A DNA stretch of 64,000 nt, taken from contig CAVRGP010000011.1 in NCBI GenBank assembly GCA_963720755.1, forward strand, positions 64,001-128,000, given 5' to 3'. The translations under genes and the position numbers were made by a program. How positions within the stretch are numbered: the stretch's first letter is position 1; every line of letters starts with the position of its first letter. This DNA is from an uncultured Chloroflexia bacterium (GTDB taxonomy: Bacteria > Chloroflexota > Limnocylindria > Limnocylindrales > CSP1-4). The notes beneath the pieces were generated by a model. That model ran no database searches. It saw only the letters and a list, made by a program, of their open reading frames with translations, and had not been told where the DNA came from. This document shows, piece by piece, positions 11,899 to 30,380 of this stretch.

Positions 11899-11995
11899 GG
11901 GAGCGGTCGGGTCCCGGTGGGTCCCCTGGTCTTCAAAACCAGTGGCGCGGCGCTCGGCGCGGCGCGGTGGGTTCGACTCCCACGCGTTCCCGCCA
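11899..11995 (+). tRNA. selC: tRNA-Sec (UCA)
   Basis: Acceptor GGGAGCG/CGTTCCC; 6-bp D stem with CGGT loop; anticodon arm CTGGT-CTTCAAA-ACCAG; long variable arm; GTGGG-TTCGACT-CCCAC; G73-CCA; lies between selD and selA. Confidence 0.96.
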
Positions 11996-21633: not shown

Positions 21634-21967
21634 GATGCTCCTCCGAGGGGCAATACAGGTCAGGGGTGTGCCAGTCGCGGGGCGGCCGCATCAGCAGTCG
21701 GGACGTGCAGGTCTGGCGGAGTTGGCCGGGACACGCGCCCAGGTGCCGATGTTGGGTCCCTGTCGCTCGGGGCGCACCGGTTCGATGACCGCGAGGATAC
21801 ATCGACTCGGCGAAATGGGCTGTCGAAGCATCGTCTGCCCGCGGCTGCAGCCGTGACACCGTACCTGTCACAATGTCGACGGACCTTTGCTTCGGCGAGC
21901 GGGGAGTCATGGGGGCGCCTCGCTCGCACCGTTCGCCTCGGGCCGCGAGGAGGGACCCCGCCACCTG

Positions 21968-23134
21968 ATGCTCAGGATCATCCATACGGCCGATGTCCAC
22001 CTCGGGGCGCGTCATGACGACCTCGGCGAGCAGGCGGCCGCCCAACGGGAACGCCAGTTCGCCGCATTCCAGGCCGCGGTGGACCTCGCCATCACGGAGC
22101 GGGTCGACCTCTTCCTGGTCGCGGGCGACCTGTTCGACTCGAACGTCCAGCCGCGCCGCTCGGTCGAACGCGTCGCCGCCGAGCTCAAGCGTCTGGCCGA
22201 CGTTCGGATCCGATCCGTGATCATCCCGGGCACCCATGACGTCTACGATCGGGCATCCATCTACCGCGCCTACGACCTGCCCGCGATGGCTGGGCTCGGC
22301 CAGGACTCGGACCTGATCACCGTCCTTCACCCGGATCGGTCGTCGGTCCATCTCGCGTCGCTCGACGCGGTGGTGATCGGCAAGGTCTTCGCGACCAAGC
22401 GCGCGCCAGCCAGTCCGCTCCTCGGCATCGGCGCCCTCGCGGATCAGCCCGCAACCTGGCGGATCGGGATGGTCCACGGCTCGATCTCGATCCCGGGCAA
22501 GACGGATCGCGACGAGGTCGTGATCACATCCGAAGAGATCGCCGCAAGCGGGTTCGACTATCTCGCCCTCGGGCACTGGCATTCCGCCCAGGTCGGCAAG
22601 CTCGGGTCCGTGACCTATGCCTACGCGGGCGCGCCGGAAGCGGTCGCCCTGGACCAGGATCGCGCCGGCAAGGTCCTGCTCGTCGAGCTCGAGGAGCGGG
22701 ACGGGCAGCGGTCCGTGACCGTCGAGGAACGGCAGGTGGGCCGGACGAGGTTCCTCAAGCAGGAGATCGATGCCGCCGCCATCGCCAGCCAGCCGGCCCT
22801 GATCACCCTGCTGGCTGCCCACGCGAGCGAGGATCTGGTCCTGGACGCCCGACTCGTCGGCGTTCGGCCGGACGACCTGGACCTGGATCTCACCGAGGTC
22901 GAGGCCGCCCTCGTGACCTCGTTCCTCAAGGTTCGGGTCCGCGACGCATCCGTCCCGGCCCTGACCGAGGGTCCGTTGCCGTCCGAGGACACGATCGCCG
23001 GTGCGTTCATCCGCGACCTCGAAGCACGGATCAAGGCCCTCGAGGCCTCCGGATCCACGGCGGAGGCCGCCGAAGATCGCGACGCTCTGCGCCTTGGGCG
23101 GCTGCTCCTCGCCGGTCACGAGGTGTCCCTGTGA
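21968..23134 (+). CDS. SbcD/Mre11-family metallophosphoesterase (DNA repair exonuclease)
   Basis: HTADVHLG, AGDLFD, PGTHD, HG, YLALGHWH, YAGAPE. Confidence 0.9.
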   Translation: MLRIIHTADVHLGARHDDLGEQAAAQRERQFAAFQAAVDLAITERVDLFLVAGDLFDSNVQPRRSVERVAAELKRLADVRIRSVIIPGTHDVYDRASIYRAYDLPAMAGLGQDSDLITVLHPDRSSVHLASLDAVVIGKVFATKRAPASPLLGIGALADQPATWRIGMVHGSISIPGKTDRDEVVITSEEIAASGFDYLALGHWHSAQVGKLGSVTYAYAGAPEAVALDQDRAGKVLLVELEERDGQRSVTVEERQVGRTRFLKQEIDAAAIASQPALITLLAAHASEDLVLDARLVGVRPDDLDLDLTEVEAALVTSFLKVRVRDASVPALTEGPLPSEDTIAGAFIRDLEARIKALEASGSTAEAAEDRDALRLGRLLLAGHEVSL

Positions 23135-25323
23135 GGGTCAGGCGGATCAGCGGTGAGCAGTTCCGTCGATACCCGACATTCGATATCGAACTCGCTCCGG
23201 GGCTGACGGTCGTCCGCGGCCCCAACGAGGCGGGCAAGACGACGATCCAGCGAGCGCTCGAGCTTGCCCTGACCCGGCGCGCGACGAGCACAGCCGCTGA
23301 ACTCGAGGCGCTTCGCCCGTGGGGAGCACCGGCAGATGTCCGCTCCACCATCACGGTCGAGTTCGAGCAGGACGATGAGGATGGCCGCAAGTCCGGGACG
23401 CTCGAGAAGACGTTTGCCGGGGCCCGTGGCACGGTCCGGCTCGATTACGACGGTCAGTCGATCACCGATCCTGCGTTGGCCGATCAGGTCCTCGCGGAGT
23501 TGACCGGCATCCCGACCGAGGGGTTCTTCCGGTCCACGGCGTCGGTCCACCACTTCGAACTGAGTGACCTGTCACGCGACGAGGGTGCGCTGCGCGATCG
23601 TCTCCAGTCATCCATCAGCGGGGCGGACCGGGGGACGAGCCGGGCGCGCAAGAAGCTGGACAAGGCACTCCACGACCTGACCACCAAGGGCGAGCGGAAT
23701 CCCGGCCGCCTCAAGGTCGCAGAGCAGGCGGTCGAGCAGGCTCAGGCAGCCCTGGACCAGGGCGAGCTGGCGCTTGCCCAGCTCGAACGCGACCGGGATG
23801 CGGCGTCGTCGGCGCGCGACCGCCGGACGGAAGTGGAGCTCGCGCTCGCGGAGCGACGCAGCCTGCTGGAGAAGGCTCGTCAGGCTGAGCGTCTGGTGGC
23901 CGAACGCACGGCTGCGAGCGAGCGCTACGAACGCTACCGCCAGGCGGTCGAGGTCGCGGCGGAGCTGGATACGCTCGCCGGTGCGCACCCATCGCCCAAT
24001 CCACTCCCGGTCGTCCGGGCAACGGTGGAGCGCCTGCGCGTGCTCGACGGCCGCGCCCGTGAGCTGCGCGCCGCGTTGGCCGGTGAGGTCGAGGTCTCGT
24101 TCGATGTCGAACCCGAACCGACCTGGCGCCCGTTGTCACGCGTCTCGATCGCGATGGTGGTCATCGGGATCCTCCTTGCGGCCGGTCCGGTCATCCTGAG
24201 TCTCCTGGGGATCACGGGCCAGGTCGTGGTCGTCCAGGCGATCGGCGCCGTCGTCGCGCTGGTCGGCGTGGCCGTCGCCGCTGTTGCCCTGTGGCTGCGT
24301 CGCAGCGACAAGATGCATGCCCAGCTGCGCGACGTGGAGATCGATCGGCGCCTTCGCGGGCGGTCCGAGATCGAGGCGGAACTCCGGGACGTCGAGGCGA
24401 AGACCGCCGGCCAGCTCGGGTCGCTCGGTCTGGCCGACCTCGCCGAGGCCGAGGATCTGCTGGCCCGTGAAGAGGCGCACGTCGCCAAGATCGACCGCCT
24501 GTCGGCGCAACTCGAGGGCCTGGTCGGAAAGGAACCGAGCGAGACGCTGGCTCCCCAACGGGACGCGGCCGCGCTCGAGATCGAGCAGAAGACCAGCGCC
24601 ATCGAGGCGCTCGGACCGATCGCCAAGGAGCCACGGGCGCGGGAGCGGCTCGAGGTGGAGGTCCGCGATCAGGAGGGAGCCCTCGAGAGGGCACGCGACG
24701 ATGAGGCCAACGCGCGCGCCCGGGTCGAGGCCAACGCCGTCGATGCCGAACAGGTCGCCGGACAGGCCGAGCGCCTGGCCGCGTGGCGTGAGCAACTGGC
24801 CGGTGCGCAGCGTCGCCAGCGGGTGTACGCGACCACGCTGGCGGCGATCGATGCCGCGGAGCAGGCCACGATGAAGACCGCCACCAGGTATCTCGAGGCG
24901 CACATGGTCCGCGACCTGGCCGCCGTGACCGGCGGCCGCTACCGTCGAGTGCGGGTCGACGACAAGACGCTGGACATCGAGGTTCGGGCGCCAGAGAAGG
25001 GCGACTGGGTGTCAGTGACGTCCCTGAGCCAGGGGACGCTCGACCTGGTCTACCTCGTCGCTCGGCTCGGCCTGGTCAGGCTCGTCACCGGCGATCGTCG
25101 ACCGCCGCTCGTGTTCGACGATCCGTTCGTGACCCTTGACGACGAGCGGGCGGCTCGGGCCCTCGGCCTGCTCCGGTCGGTCGCGGCCGACTTCCAGGTC
25201 ATCTACCTGACGACTTCGCCGCGCTACGACAAGGCAGCGGACGCCGTCGTCGTCCTCGAGGGACCGACCAGTGTCGATCCGGGTGCCGAGGCCGACGCGG
25301 CACCGCCCTCGAGATCCGCCTGA
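23131..25323 (+). CDS. SMC/Rad50-like AAA ATPase (YhaN-like) with central TM hairpin
   Basis: Walker A GPNEAGKTT; coiled coil; two hydrophobic helices; signature LSQGT; Walker B VFDDPFVTLD. Confidence 0.88.
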   Translation: MRVRRISGEQFRRYPTFDIELAPGLTVVRGPNEAGKTTIQRALELALTRRATSTAAELEALRPWGAPADVRSTITVEFEQDDEDGRKSGTLEKTFAGARGTVRLDYDGQSITDPALADQVLAELTGIPTEGFFRSTASVHHFELSDLSRDEGALRDRLQSSISGADRGTSRARKKLDKALHDLTTKGERNPGRLKVAEQAVEQAQAALDQGELALAQLERDRDAASSARDRRTEVELALAERRSLLEKARQAERLVAERTAASERYERYRQAVEVAAELDTLAGAHPSPNPLPVVRATVERLRVLDGRARELRAALAGEVEVSFDVEPEPTWRPLSRVSIAMVVIGILLAAGPVILSLLGITGQVVVVQAIGAVVALVGVAVAAVALWLRRSDKMHAQLRDVEIDRRLRGRSEIEAELRDVEAKTAGQLGSLGLADLAEAEDLLAREEAHVAKIDRLSAQLEGLVGKEPSETLAPQRDAAALEIEQKTSAIEALGPIAKEPRARERLEVEVRDQEGALERARDDEANARARVEANAVDAEQVAGQAERLAAWREQLAGAQRRQRVYATTLAAIDAAEQATMKTATRYLEAHMVRDLAAVTGGRYRRVRVDDKTLDIEVRAPEKGDWVSVTSLSQGTLDLVYLVARLGLVRLVTGDRRPPLVFDDPFVTLDDERAARALGLLRSVAADFQVIYLTTSPRYDKAADAVVVLEGPTSVDPGAEADAAPPSRSA

Positions 25324-26544: not shown

Positions 26545-27049
26545 TCCTGGACAGTTCGGCTGGGTCGCGCAGCACGATGACGTCGGCGAACCCTTCGTTG
26601 GCAAGTGTCGAGCCTTCGAGTGACGCCCTGAGCTGATCCAGATGTCGACGGACCACGACCGGATCGACGACCCGTGGTCGACCGAGGTTCTGCGCCAGGA
26701 CCACTGCCTCGGGTGGATCGATGACCAATGCGATCGTCGGCAGCTCGGCGTCATCCGCCAGAGCGAGGAGCGCCCGCCGAGCGCGCGCCTGGACGTTGGT
26801 CGCGTCGATCACGGTCAGTCGCCGGGCCGCCAATCGGCCGGCCACAGCTCGGTGAAGGCGTTGGAATGCGGCGCGTGTCGCCGACTGATCCGCTTCGTCG
26901 CCGGACACGATCGACCGGAACCGGTCGGACGACAGGACCTCGTCCGATGCGAAGTGCCCGGCGGCGAACGTGGACTTGCCGGCACCAGCCGCCCCGATCA
27001 GGACGATCAGGCTCGGGTCGGGTACGACGATCTCGCGTCCGTGATCCAT
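26519..27049 (-). CDS. AAA_33 P-loop kinase (stand-alone polynucleotide-kinase-like domain)
   Basis: LIVLIGAAGAGKSTFA, SSDRFR, RRLTVIDATN, EGF. Confidence 0.85.
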   Translation of the reverse strand: MDHGREIVVPDPSLIVLIGAAGAGKSTFAAGHFASDEVLSSDRFRSIVSGDEADQSATRAAFQRLHRAVAGRLAARRLTVIDATNVQARARRALLALADDAELPTIALVIDPPEAVVLAQNLGRPRVVDPVVVRRHLDQLRASLEGSTLANEGFADVIVLRDPAELSRIRIHRHRS

Positions 27050-27105
27050 CGGGCGATGATGCCCCAGGCGACGTCCGCGAGTCGCCGGCGTGCGAACCAT
27101 GGTCG

Positions 27106-28551
27106 ATGACTGATTCGACAGCGATCGTCTGGTTTCGCCGGGATCTGCGGATCCACGACCACCCGGCTCTTGTCGCGGCGGCCGCGGCGCATCGGACGGT
27201 CGTCCCCTTGTACGTGCTCGACCCGCGCCTGATCGGTGGGCGATCGGCCAGCCCGAATCGAACCTGGTTCCTCCTCGGATCGATCCGTTCGCTCGCATCC
27301 GAACTTGCCGATCGCGGCGCCCCGCTGGTCGTCCGGGTCGGTGATCCGGTGAGCGTCGTGCCGGACGTCGCCGCTGCCGCAGGCGCACACGATGTGTATG
27401 TTTCGCGCGATCACGGGCCGTACGGTCGCGCTCGAGACGCGGCGGTGGCCGGGGCCATCGGGGCGGGACGCCTGCATGCCGAGCCGGGGGTCCTTGTCCA
27501 CGAGCCGGAGACGATCGCTACGCTCGATGGGCGTCCGTTCAGCATCTACTCGCCATTCCGACGGACCTGGGAACGGCGGCTTCGTCGGGCGCCGCTCGCG
27601 TCGCCTGTCCGCCTTGCCGGCCACCGGATCGATCCCGGCACGATCCCGACGCTTGGCGACCTCGACCTCCCCTCATCCCCGACGGCGGATCCGGACCTCC
27701 TGCCCGAACCCGGCGAGGCCGCGGCCCGGCGACGACTCGAGCGGTGGCTGGCCCACGGCATCGATCGCTACGCGACCACCCGCGACCGACTCGACCTGGT
27801 CGACGGCACGTCGCGGCTGTCGGCCGACCTCCACCTGGGTCTCCTGTCCGCCACGGAGGTGGTCGATCGCGCCCTTGGCCCCGGTGATGGCCGACAGCGG
27901 TTCCTCGATCAACTCATCTGGCGTGAGTTCTATGCCCACGTCCTCTTCCACCGACCGGACGTGCGTCGCCGCGAGTTCCGAGCGGATCTCGCGGGCCTCG
28001 CGTGGTCGAACGACGGGGCCGCGTTGGCTGCCTGGCGCGCGGGAACGACCGGCTTTCCGGTCGTGGACGCCGCGATGCGCCAGCTGGCCGCGTGCGGCTG
28101 GATGCACAATCGGGCCAGGATGATCGTCGCCTCGTTCCTGACCAAGGACCTGCTCATCGACTGGCGGGCCGGCGAGGCGCATTTCATGCACCACCTGGTG
28201 GACGGCGATCTCGCCTCGAACAACGGGGGCTGGCAGTGGGCCGCCTCGACCGGGACGGATCCGCAGCCGTACTTCAGGATCTTCAATCCCGTCCTGCAGG
28301 GCCGAACCCACGATCCGCATGGCGAATATGTCCGACGCTGGGTGCCCGAGCTCCGGAACGTCCCACCCGAGCACATCCATGCTCCATGGGAGATGACCGA
28401 GGTGGTGGCACGGCGGTCCGGGGTCCAGGTCGGGTCGGACTACCCGGCCCCGATCGTCGATCACGCCGATGCCCGCGCGCGGGCGTTGGCCGCCTACCGA
28501 CTGGCGCGGTCTGTCCACAGCTCGTCCACATCGGCCACCGAATGGGGATAA
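27106..28551 (+). CDS. phrB: Deoxyribodipyrimidine photolyase (class I CPD)
   Basis: WFRRDLRIHDHPAL, TSRLSADLHLG, LIWREF, TGFPVVDAAMRQL, MHNRARM, NNGGWQW, FRIFNP. Confidence 0.95.
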   Translation: MTDSTAIVWFRRDLRIHDHPALVAAAAAHRTVVPLYVLDPRLIGGRSASPNRTWFLLGSIRSLASELADRGAPLVVRVGDPVSVVPDVAAAAGAHDVYVSRDHGPYGRARDAAVAGAIGAGRLHAEPGVLVHEPETIATLDGRPFSIYSPFRRTWERRLRRAPLASPVRLAGHRIDPGTIPTLGDLDLPSSPTADPDLLPEPGEAAARRRLERWLAHGIDRYATTRDRLDLVDGTSRLSADLHLGLLSATEVVDRALGPGDGRQRFLDQLIWREFYAHVLFHRPDVRRREFRADLAGLAWSNDGAALAAWRAGTTGFPVVDAAMRQLAACGWMHNRARMIVASFLTKDLLIDWRAGEAHFMHHLVDGDLASNNGGWQWAASTGTDPQPYFRIFNPVLQGRTHDPHGEYVRRWVPELRNVPPEHIHAPWEMTEVVARRSGVQVGSDYPAPIVDHADARARALAAYRLARSVHSSSTSATEWG

Positions 28552-28584
28552 CTTCCGCGGTGTTTGGACCGATTTCGTGGACAA
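28511..28584. promoter_or_regulatory. Cluster of DnaA-box-like 9-mers
   Basis: CTGTCCACA 28511, TCGTCCACA 28522, TTATCCCCA (rc, 28543-28551), TTGTCCACG (rc, 28576-28584); each is one mismatch from TT(A/G)TCCACA. Confidence 0.55.
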
Positions 28585-28589
28585 CCCCG

Positions 28590-28619
28590 TTGTGGTGCCC
28601 CCATGGCGGGCCGTATATT
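28590..28619 (+). promoter_or_regulatory. Sigma70-type promoter of the candidate ncRNA
   Basis: TTGTGG-N18-TATATT; predicted +1 at G28626 coincides with the first base of the terminal stem. Confidence 0.6.
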
Positions 28620-28625
28620 TCTCTT

Positions 28626-28806
28626 GCCCGAAGGGGCAGGTTGAACCGCCAGACCGGTCAGGGGAGCGATCCTCAGGACGGTCCCGGGAACCAGGTTCGC
28701 AGGTCGCAAGGCCCGCGAGCGAGGGACTCGGCGACGACCAGGGACTGTGGACTTGTTCGCAGCCTCAGGACCCGTCGAACGGAGGTCCCCACCAGTTCCT
28801 TCGGGC
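28626..28806 (+). ncRNA. Candidate ~181-nt structured ncRNA (6S-like rod or novel)
   Basis: 12-bp terminal stem GCCCGAAGGGGC/GTTCCTTCGGGC; internal stem ACGGTCCC/GGGACTGT; GCAA and GCGA tetraloop hairpins; no credible ORF. Confidence 0.65.
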
Positions 28807-28815
28807 GTTTCCATG

Positions 28816-28850
28816 CGCCCGGCACGGCCCCCAGCCGCCCGGCACGGCCC
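28816..28850 (+). repeat. 15-bp direct repeat CGCCCGGCACGGCCC x2 (20-nt period)
   Basis: Copies at 28816-28830 and 28836-28850. Confidence 0.8.
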
Positions 28851-29090
28851 ACAACCGCGTGGTCTCTGCCGCTGAGTATCCTCGTTCGTGTTCGGCTACA
28901 CCACAGGCCACATCTTCGCCAGCTACACATGGGGCTCGTGCCTGACACGGATCGGACGTCCAACGAGGCCGCCGGAACGACCGAGGGCGGTAGGCGTCCG
29001 CAGAAGACGAACCATGCTGCTATCTGGCGAGGACCCCGGACCAGTCGGGATCCTGGGCAGCATCCTCGCGACTTCCGCTAGTCTCCGCAG

Positions 29091-30380
29091 GTGCCCACGA
29101 CCTTGACCGAGCCCGATCTCGCCACGCCCCGCGCCGGGCAGGATTGGCGGATCCTCGTCGCCGTCTTCTGGGTCACCTCGATGGTCGAAGGCCTCGGCGT
29201 CAGCCAGATCTTCGCGCTGCTGCCGTCCTACCTGCACCAGATGGGCGTCCCGGACAGCCAGCGGCTCACGTTCATCGGGATCTTCAGTGCCCTGATCTTC
29301 GTGGTCGGGATGCCGCTCGTCCCGGTGTGGGGCGCCTGGGCCGACAAGTACAGCCGGAAGGTCGTCATCGTCCGGAGCGCCATCGTCGAGGCGGTCGTAC
29401 TCGCCGCAGTCGCCCTGGCCCGCGAACCCTGGCAGGTCGCACTGGCGATGCTCCTCGTCGGCCTCCAGCTGGGCAATACGGGCATCATGCTGGCGGGGAT
29501 CCGAGACGTGACGCCGCGCCGACGGCTGGGCACGACGATCGCCCTGTTCGGCGCGTCCGGCCCGGTCGGGTTCGCCGTCGGCCCGGCCCTGGCCGGCATC
29601 CTGATCGACGGTTTCGGCTGGGCCATCCCGGCGGTCTTCGGTTTCTCGGCCCTCCTGTCCGTCGGGACCGCGGTGCTGGTCACCTTCGGTTCGAAGGAGA
29701 TCCGTCCCGAGGTCGTGCCGACCGGCCGGATCGTGGACCTCGCCTTCTCGTCGCTCCGCGGCGTCCTAACCGACAAGGCCACGCGACGGATCTTCACGAT
29801 CTTCGGCATCTCGTTCGTGGCGATCCAGATGAGCCGGCCGTACATCCCGATCCTGGTCGAGGGGATCAACGGGCTCGGTCCCGGACTGGCGTCCGCGATC
29901 GCGCTGGTCGCCGGGACGGGGGCGCTGGTCGGGGCGCTCGTCTCACCGCTCGGCGGGGTCATCGGCGATCGGATCGGCTTCCGGCCGGTGCTCATCGCCG
30001 CTCTCGGCGGCGCCAGTGTCGTGCTGTTCACGATGCCACTGGTCGGGTCGATCGGGGTCCTGGCCCTGCTGGCGGTCGGGCTCGGGGCGGCGACCGCGAC
30101 CGTCAGCTCGATGATCTTCGGGTTGCTCGCCACGGAGCTCCCGCCGGAGCGCCGCTCCGCCGCGCTCAATCTCGTCTACCTGCCGCTCTATGCCGCCGGG
30201 ATCATCGGACCGGCCGCCGGCGCGCTGATCGCGTCGGTCAGCGGGGTCCACGGGCTGTTCGTCGCCGCATCGGCGGTGTTCCTGTTCGGCGCCATCACGA
30301 TCTGGCTGCGGCGCAACCCGGCGGTGAGCCCGCACCACGTCGCCGCCTCGGAACTGCCGCCGACACCCGTCGAGTTCTGA
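29091..30380 (+). CDS. MFS transporter (DHA1-like)
   Basis: WGAWADKYSRK, GVIGDRIGFR; about 12 TM; TAGTCT-N6-GTG. Confidence 0.88.
   Translation: MPTTLTEPDLATPRAGQDWRILVAVFWVTSMVEGLGVSQIFALLPSYLHQMGVPDSQRLTFIGIFSALIFVVGMPLVPVWGAWADKYSRKVVIVRSAIVEAVVLAAVALAREPWQVALAMLLVGLQLGNTGIMLAGIRDVTPRRRLGTTIALFGASGPVGFAVGPALAGILIDGFGWAIPAVFGFSALLSVGTAVLVTFGSKEIRPEVVPTGRIVDLAFSSLRGVLTDKATRRIFTIFGISFVAIQMSRPYIPILVEGINGLGPGLASAIALVAGTGALVGALVSPLGGVIGDRIGFRPVLIAALGGASVVLFTMPLVGSIGVLALLAVGLGAATATVSSMIFGLLATELPPERRSAALNLVYLPLYAAGIIGPAAGALIASVSGVHGLFVAASAVFLFGAITIWLRRNPAVSPHHVAASELPPTPVEF

Follow-up and report, generated by a model that had tools for sequence, protein, structure and literature searches.

The locus examined here raises a simple question: does the segment at positions 28626-28806 of the window (the whole 64,000-nucleotide (nt) stretch from an uncultured Chloroflexia bacterium, contig CAVRGP010000011.1) encode a discrete RNA and, if so, of what kind? 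An earlier note, made from the letters alone, had described an unannotated, structured RNA of ~181 nt that starts at G28626 on the + strand behind its own promoter, and had wavered between a divergent 6S- or Ms1-like RNA, drawn as a rod, and an undescribed noncoding RNA. We find that the segment very probably encodes a real, stand-alone small RNA (sRNA) belonging to a new family. Our overall reading, that this stand-alone family acts in trans and probably binds a protein, has about an even chance of being right. Positions within the RNA are counted from G28626 (position 1), and coordinates without a contig name refer to the window.

28626-28806, + strand: 181-nt sRNA, class 1, long form (fold z-score, model score and metatranscriptome contigs).

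Contigs from four metatranscriptomic runs, belonging to four studies (soil and plant), were placed on the window at ≥85% identity. All 513 of them (154, 5, 268 and 86 per run) fell inside 28625-28807, and contig depth was zero at 28480-28614 and again at 28810-28920. The summed word depth reached ~6x10^5. No contig continued into unlike sequence in three of the runs; the share of 0.35 in the fourth was traced to one contig with a diverged middle, not a diverged flank. In one run, three contigs have adapter directly against 28625; adapter or poly-A also stands directly against 28803 and 28807, and the mature 3′ end lies at ~28803-28808. A block so sharply bounded, and alike in all four studies, would be expected of a discrete, highly abundant RNA of ~181 nt (the earlier note had suggested looking for a discrete transcript of ~180 nt); the strand and the exact ends of this RNA we infer.

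The segment is also structured beyond what its composition would give. The + strand has a minimum free energy of -95.1 kcal/mol, compared with -77.3±4.6 in 200 shuffles (z = -3.87, with 0/200 shuffles as good), and the - strand has a z-score of -2.24, with 3/200 shuffles as good. Positions 28626-28637 pair with 28795-28806 in a stem of 12 base pairs (bp) including two G-U pairs, GTTT follows directly after 28806, and the sequence contains both hairpin tips, GGGGA-GCGA-UCCUC and GGUC-GCAA-GGCC; all of these had been described before and were found as described. The RNA folds as a four-way junction, in which an invariant 12-bp closing helix holds together three covarying hairpins with stable tetraloops. 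Its parts are as follows.

28626-28650, + strand: 5′ strand of P1, RNA 1-25; the opening 12 nt, GCCCGAAGGGGC, are invariant.
28652-28683, + strand: P2 hairpin, RNA 27-58; tip GA-GCGA-UC, with a GNRA loop at 28666-28669.
28684-28731, + strand: P3 hairpin, RNA 59-106; GCAA tetraloop at 28706-28709.
28732-28777, + strand: P4 hairpin, RNA 107-152; CUUG loop at 28752-28755, a variable arm.
28781-28806, + strand: 3′ strand of P1, RNA 156-181; ends in the invariant GUUCCUUCGGGC, with U28796 and U28797 forming the tandem G-U pairs.
28807-28817, + strand: U-rich 3′ flank, GTTTCCATGCG here and GCTTTCGTGTG in most relatives (flank conservation).

The junction was tested as a structure of 65 pairs, made up of the closing stem and the three hairpins, in an alignment of 34 sequences from the genus (32 of them distinct), which carries indels of 1-2 nt. 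Standard pairs filled 96.2% of cells, and compensatory changes were seen in 19/65 pairs, compared with 6.0±1.5 after column shuffling and 2-7 when pairing partners were slid by 1-3 columns. Among the changed pairs are 4 of the 12 pairs of P2 (94.8% paired) and 10/15 pairs of P4; the 16 pairs of P3 are 98.2% paired. In contrast, when a rod was built by forcing ACGGUCCC to pair with GGGACUGU, its rod-specific helices were only 68.5% and 74.2% paired across the same 34 sequences. Covariation in relatives, which had been named beforehand as a check on the RNA, was thus found, and it favours the branched fold that the earlier note had mentioned as an alternative (junction hairpins 94-98% paired) over the rod that it had put first. 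In P4, other genera carry a GAGCAAUC or GAGAUCACAUCAAGG module instead, indicating module swaps.

A wider alignment of 45 sequences from 16 genera shows compensatory change in 45/65 pairs (26.3±2.8 when shuffled) and in 238 cells compared with 59, figures that lean towards the model because the sequences were aligned to the covariance model itself. A sequence from an unpublished genome (locus L068, genome G140) was excluded from all alignments, and all-against-all column covariation was too noisy for use. What does not vary is as telling as what does. Pairs 1-12 of P1 are unchanged in 32/32 distinct genus sequences and nearly so in the 45 sequences of 16 genera. Forty seven columns are held in ≥93% of sequences across these genera, almost all of them in the 12+12 nt of P1, in GAGYRAUC of P2 and in CGCAAGG of P3; the junction, which carries only 1-3 unpaired bases, has nucleotides that vary. 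The tandem G-U pairs of P1 are kept in 44/45 and 45/45 sequences, in line with the previous claim that G-U pairs favour the + strand. Together with a covariance model score of 182.3 bits forward compared with 35.1 reverse, these invariant G-U pairs point to the + strand as the transcribed one.

One ambiguity concerns the 5′ end. The 12-mer GCCCGAAGGGGC forms a mini-hairpin on its own (-6.8 kcal/mol, 97% of the ensemble), and a first RNAalifold run proposed such a local 5′ hairpin in place of the extended P1. Covariation cannot separate the two, because both strands of P1 are invariant. At the other end, a U-rich flank of the GCTTTCGTGTG type follows the RNA in 127/131 homologous loci, and P1 and this flank probably form an intrinsic terminator, judging from sequence and its conservation.

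With a base composition of ~70% G+C, long open reading frames (ORFs) overlap 28626-28806, as is expected at such G+C. The largest of them, of 359 amino acids, has no Pfam match.

The letters of the proposed promoter were confirmed, with a -35 element TTGTGG at 28590-28595, an 18-nt spacer and a -10 element TATATT at 28614-28619, and G28626 lies seven bases further on. Upstream of it are repeated boxes.

28590-28619, + strand: sigma-70-type promoter, TTGTGG/18 nt/TATATT (sequence, and positional conservation of TTG and TAnnnT).
28577-28584, + strand: proximal box GTGGACAA (context TTCGTGGACAAC), centred at ~-45, directly upstream of the -35 element.
28512-28530, + strand: two distal boxes in reverse orientation, TGTCCACA at 28512-28519 (~-114) and CGTCCACA at 28523-28530 (sequence).

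TTGTGG fits only 3/6 positions of TTGACA, and the site was for this reason not listed by a consensus promoter scan. The promoter is supported by conservation rather than by that scan. In 131 homologous loci, collected via RNA ends or homology and not via the promoter, a GTGGAYAA box sits at -50/-49 in 128 and TAnnnT lies 5-9 nt 5′ of the RNA start in 123, and the box is conserved in the alignment too. Moreover, at least one extra core box (GTGGAYA/TRTCCAC) was found between -250 and -56 in 97/130 loci, compared with 5/257 background windows. These extra boxes peak at ~-90, where they run forward in 60/65 cases, and at -110/-120, where they are reversed in 82/84; in the window, both distal boxes, TGTCCACA and CGTCCACA, fall within the 3′ end of the photolyase gene. 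At least three core boxes within 200 bp occur in only two places in this genome, upstream of the two sibling sRNAs described below. The GTGGAYAA core agrees with 8/9 positions of the DnaA-box consensus. The dnaA gene itself lies at ~122.8-123.3 kb of contig C2, with only two near-boxes beside it and no box cluster, and the GC skew of this genome is flat, so that the origin could not be placed from it. A separate observation is a terminator-like hairpin followed by CCGTATATTT at 28586-28610 (+ strand), inside the spacer of the sRNA promoter. From its sequence, it may serve as the terminator of the photolyase gene upstream; relatives do not conserve the sequence of the spacer.

We sought the RNA among known families. 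A search of the whole window at Rfam gathering thresholds found only a tRNA-Sec gene, and a search of 28450-29150 against Rfam 15 at E≤10 gave no family match, with two chance hits only (a microRNA and a long noncoding RNA). A full-text literature search found nothing on the 181-nt RNA. The second option of the earlier note, an undescribed noncoding RNA, is thus borne out by Rfam 15. Signal recognition particle (SRP) RNA, RNase P RNA and tmRNA were ruled out as identities, since the genome has its own copies of all three elsewhere, each scoring above the cut-off.

Contig C11, 502509-502772: SRP RNA.
Contig C11, 670332-670703: RNase P RNA.
Contig C2, 111252-111626: tmRNA.

Homologues of the RNA are confined to a narrow group of hosts. 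By blastn, 32/36 genomes of the same genus contain one strong match of 73-91% identity, covering window positions ~28574-28823; the four genomes without a match are 59-89% complete. Such a match was found in 0/24 genomes of the sister family. A covariance model of the long form, applied with strict filters, found exactly one full-length copy in 36/151 family genomes, representing 16/49 genera, a tally that includes the unpublished G140. Within the class, this model finds the RNA in family f1 only (18/44), and in 0/6, 0/49, 0/50 and 0/1 genomes of the other families. Scanning one genome per prokaryotic species with a sequence pattern gave at least 120 stretches, almost all from metagenome-assembled genomes labelled Limnocylindria/Limnocylindrales, Chloroflexia or Chloroflexota. 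Six matches (L075, L078, L118, L120, L136 and L141), labelled Rokubacteria, Geminicoccaceae, Verrucomicrobiota, Opitutales and, in two cases, Chloroflexia, lack the inner motifs; they are chance matches and were excluded from every count. The labels identify the host as a soil Chloroflexota lineage and not an actinobacterium. The host belongs with the Limnocylindria, and the actinobacterial premise is wrong.

The long form is not alone. Two further genes in this genome have the same promoter boxes, a 5′ end of GC(C/U)CGAAGGGGC and a 3′ end of ...UUCGGGC followed by a U-rich tail.

Contig C11, 298693-298769 (locus L203, 1094-1170): 77-nt sibling with one GAGAUCACAUCAAGG hairpin, between moaA and a purine nucleoside phosphorylase (PNP) gene, upstream of PNP.
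Contig C15, 544934-545014 (locus L257, 5435-5515): 81-nt sibling, one long hairpin that shares the terminal helix, immediately behind hflX.

The signature of box, 36-46 nt and 5′ end was found in 68/91 genomes of f1, at 1-4 loci each. Elsewhere in the class it was found in 2/12 genomes of f2 and in none of 92 of f46, 103 of f3 and 2 of f47; in other classes of the phylum it was found in 0/134 genomes, and a reversed control of the pattern matched nowhere. Class 2 RNAs carry one to three hairpins of the type GAGAUCAC(A/C)UCAAGG, which is also the P4 arm of the long RNA in some genera, and lie upstream of PNP in at least 13/21 loci, the remaining loci having short flanks. Class 3 RNAs (78-87 nt) form one long hairpin, with compensatory change in 12/26 pairs among 27 sequences, and stand in 1-3 tandem copies right behind hflX in 16/18 loci. 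A search of nine sibling and homologue loci against Rfam at E≤1 gave no family match and one chance match. The promoter and the terminal helix are the only features common to all members. The 181-nt RNA is the largest member of a lineage-restricted family found in one family of Limnocylindria.

Two observations concern class 2 only. A variant hairpin, GAUCACCUCAAGG (for example at L237, L239 and L252), has nine contiguous bases, GAUCACCUC, in common with the 3′ tail of 16S rRNA, which in this genome reads …GGCUGGAUCACCUCCUUUCU (contig C11, ~507296). This variant may be an anti-Shine-Dalgarno mimic, a sequence likeness that was spotted post hoc. Second, between the class 2 sRNA and the PNP start lies another conserved hairpin, GACGYGAUCGGCAUCCCGGUGUCGAUAC inside a GCCCGACGG...CCGUCGGGC stem (L203, ~1230-1290, and class 2 loci L217-L248). 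No Rfam family matches this hairpin, which may be a leader element of the PNP gene in its own right.

Turning to the neighbours of the long form, the window has a photolyase gene upstream (26728-28551, + strand) and a gene for an efflux-type transporter of the major facilitator superfamily (MFS) downstream, from 29091. In the genus, MFS follows the RNA in 29/34 loci and photolyase precedes it in only 5/34. The distance from the RNA to MFS is 285 nt in the window, a spacer of variable length that measures ~50-130 nt in most relatives and here contains a tandem direct repeat of ~20 nt (GCCCGGCACGGCCC…, 28815-28860). In the relatives' loci L009-L024, a (C)TAGGCT(T)CC motif is conserved ~35-45 nt after the RNA, just 5′ of the MFS start. 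It looks like the -10 element of a leaderless MFS mRNA, which would make the MFS gene independent of the sRNA promoter. Other genera show other arrangements: thymidine kinase - RNA - NUDIX - FAD oxidoreductase, in which the NUDIX start codon is ~40 nt behind the RNA; DnaB_C/KaiC-like - RNA - inorganic pyrophosphatase - LigT; RDD - RNA - PNP; and the RNA followed by a convergent GroEL or GT87 gene. Among 125 loci with enough flank, 91 have the downstream gene on the same strand (NUDIX 33, MFS 28, pyrophosphatase 16, PNP 4, others 10), 27 have it on the opposite strand and 7 have no called gene. As the downstream gene differs between clades, the RNA does not serve a single gene family as its leader. 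Further upstream in the window, before the photolyase gene, is a SbcD/SbcC-like nuclease pair (21887-25323, + strand). The tRNA-Sec gene mentioned above (11899-11991, + strand; RF01852, 65.5 bits) implies the use of selenocysteine in this Chloroflexota genome.

How might such an RNA work? A sigma-70-type promoter with GTGGAYAA boxes at ~-49, -90 and -115 drives a discrete RNA, the synthesis of which, in the mechanism that we propose, would end at P1 and the U-tract. One dedicated regulator would read the boxes and thereby control all 1-4 siblings of a genome together. The RNA itself would act in trans, as a scaffold that binds protein or as an RNA that sequesters it, with the terminal helix and its tandem G-U pairs, and the tips of P2 and P3, as candidate recognition surfaces. 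These surfaces are suggested because the stems and junction covary freely while the helix and the tips are frozen across genera, and a protein is suggested as reader of the helix because the helix is frozen even between paralogues. Protein binding through the invariant helix, as the specific mode of action, is a tentative proposal to which we give somewhat worse than an even chance.

Several points weigh against this proposal and should be set beside it. Assembled contigs cannot strictly prove RNA ends or levels, the alignment of 45 sequences leans towards its own model, and the gene calls in relatives behind the tally of 125 loci came from a crude GC3 filter. No protein partner was identified, and none is encoded beside the loci. 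Read-through into downstream genes is plausible, with 91/118 called genes co-oriented and the NUDIX start ~40 nt away. Lastly, the invariance of P1 could reflect a constraint at the DNA level on +1 to +12, or a bistable switch between the 5′ hairpin and the terminator.

A bolder form of the protein-binding proposal, which we consider rather improbable, would make the invariant 12-bp helix a common handle, read by a protein or complex specific to the lineage, and the family a modular ribonucleoprotein system with interchangeable hairpins, 16S 3′-tail mimics among them, with members beside hflX and nucleotide-salvage genes and with switching through the DnaA-box-like sites. If true, this system would be a new form of RNA-based control, by which a soil lineage that is globally abundant but uncultured ties its ribosome or nucleotide economy to its replication or growth state.

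Of the alternatives, the one that survives best, and which we still consider unlikely, is a base-pairing regulator. Most bacterial trans-acting sRNAs act by antisense pairing with mRNAs, and exposed loops or arms of this RNA could do likewise, in which case the invariant helix would only stabilise or terminate the cassette. Several siblings per genome under one box would suit this, as is the case for other multi-copy base-pairing sRNAs, and the GAUCACCUC of the variant class 2 hairpin could provide an anti-Shine-Dalgarno-like seed to pair with ribosome-binding sites. However, the similarity to the 16S tail, besides being post hoc, concerns the siblings and not the 181-nt RNA, the conserved positions of which are paired helix ends and GNRA tetraloops rather than a single-stranded seed.

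A cis-acting leader or attenuator is less probable again. Here the P1 terminator would compete with the 5′ mini-hairpin, and a factor reading the hairpin tips would set the read-through into the downstream gene. Bistability of this kind would account for the weak tandem G-U pairs that P1 carries, and the 12-mer hairpin is indeed stable alone. Its other support comes from the neighbourhood: the co-orientation of downstream genes, several of which encode nucleotide or pyrophosphate enzymes, the frequency of MFS in the genus, the closeness of the NUDIX start and the position of the class 2 sibling upstream of PNP. The same neighbourhood also speaks against it, as at least four unrelated families follow the RNA, the gene is convergent at 27 loci, the MFS start in the window is far away behind a variable spacer and the TAGGCT motif precedes that start in relatives. 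Moreover, no contig passes the 3′ end of the RNA in 3/4 runs. A metabolite riboswitch in particular would be expected to keep one downstream family and a conserved junction or ligand core. Over the 125 loci the downstream family is not constant, and the junction core, unlike that of metabolite riboswitches, is not conserved.

There is only a slight chance that the RNA is a functional analogue of 6S or Ms1, which by this analogy would bind RNA polymerase and damp transcription in resting cells by way of a different architecture. Its size, abundance, single copy, paired ends and own promoter would all fit, and no canonical 6S RNA was detected in this genome or in the 14 other genomes of the class that were searched with RF00013 (f1, 0/3 besides this genome; f2, 0/1; f3, 0/10). 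However, at E≤10 neither RF00013 (6S) nor RF02566 (Ms1) matches the region or anything in the genome, which is 93.6% complete, and RF00013 does find 6S RNA in 34/151 Chloroflexota genomes. Those 6S RNAs share strings among themselves (e.g. GUUUUGAGCCAAC, GGUUCAAAAC) that are absent from the 181-nt RNA, and no sequence is common to the two. The specific 6S/Ms1-like identity put forward at the outset is thus not supported. The fold that covariation describes is a tight four-way junction and lacks an open central bubble, the rod having been rejected, and siblings of 77-87 nt, which carry the same helix, are unable to mimic an open promoter. Moreover, the 181-nt RNA is missing from f3 and f46 (0/195), and since f3 lacks both this RNA and a detectable 6S, the RNA does not simply fill a 6S gap.

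The weakest alternative, to which we give next to no chance, is an element that works as DNA, either as palindromic protein sites or as a mobile repeat, and is transcribed only incidentally. In its favour, GCCCGAAGGGGC is a near-palindrome that recurs as an inverted repeat at both ends of every member, and protein-binding boxes flank each locus. Against it, the conserved G-U pairs would read as C-A mismatches on the opposite strand, helices are kept at the RNA level through compensatory changes, the RNA is very abundant and placement within clades is orthologous and syntenic rather than scattered. The idea is already largely refuted by covariation and RNA-seq evidence.

The stand-alone, probably protein-binding sRNA thus remains the reading that we carry forward. 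Limnocylindria are widespread, uncultured Chloroflexota of soil and freshwater with almost no experimental biology, and they now have a very abundant, structured sRNA family with defined RNA ends, fold and promoter and with a defined candidate motif for a regulator, none of them in Rfam or the searchable literature. The very high depth in four soil and plant metatranscriptomes means that the RNA could confound or inform analyses of such data. A specific reader of the invariant helix, be it a protein or a switch, can be sought directly. Moreover, a tempting misannotation is removed, as this 181-nt RNA is not a 6S RNA.

Lastly, we compared the RNA with known systems. With 6S RNA it shares a length of ~180 nt, very high abundance, its own promoter, ends paired in a long closing stem and one copy per genome; it differs in being a four-way junction rather than a rod with a central bubble, in having short siblings with the same helix and in having no sequence in common with canonical 6S RNAs from other Chloroflexota. 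Like Ms1 of mycobacteria, it is an abundant structured sRNA from a high-G+C bacterium with no recognisable 6S, but it measures 181 nt compared with the 304 positions of the RF02566 model, and its host belongs to the Chloroflexota and not the Actinobacteria.

The bacterial Y RNAs offer a stem of the 5′ and 3′ ends as a possible protein handle, variable inner modules and several paralogues. The helix here is, however, perfect, lacking the bulges of a Ro site, and no Rfam Y RNA was matched. Moreover, a Ro60/TROVE gene was not found (PF05731, 0 matches in the 93.6%-complete genome, with a positive Deinococcus control), which argues against a Y RNA. The IMES, raiA and OLE RNAs resemble the present one in coming from uncultured or poorly studied hosts, in being highly structured and in their striking abundance in metatranscriptomes; the difference from orphan RNAs of this type is that no Rfam family was matched to the region of the 181-nt RNA.

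In its genetic organisation, the family comes close to RsmX/Y/Z and CsrB/C, which are sibling sRNAs under one upstream activating box. There too, abundant paralogues with a common upstream box and terminator may sequester a protein, and some members have a hairpin motif repeated 1-3 times. By eye, however, the 181-nt RNA has only 5 GGA triplets, none of them in a conserved loop, and the Rsm and Csr RNAs are not known to have an invariant terminal helix common to paralogues. The RNA family is new, but its general kind, that of bacterial sRNAs with sibling copies, is familiar; what is unusual is an invariant terminal helix common to otherwise different paralogues.

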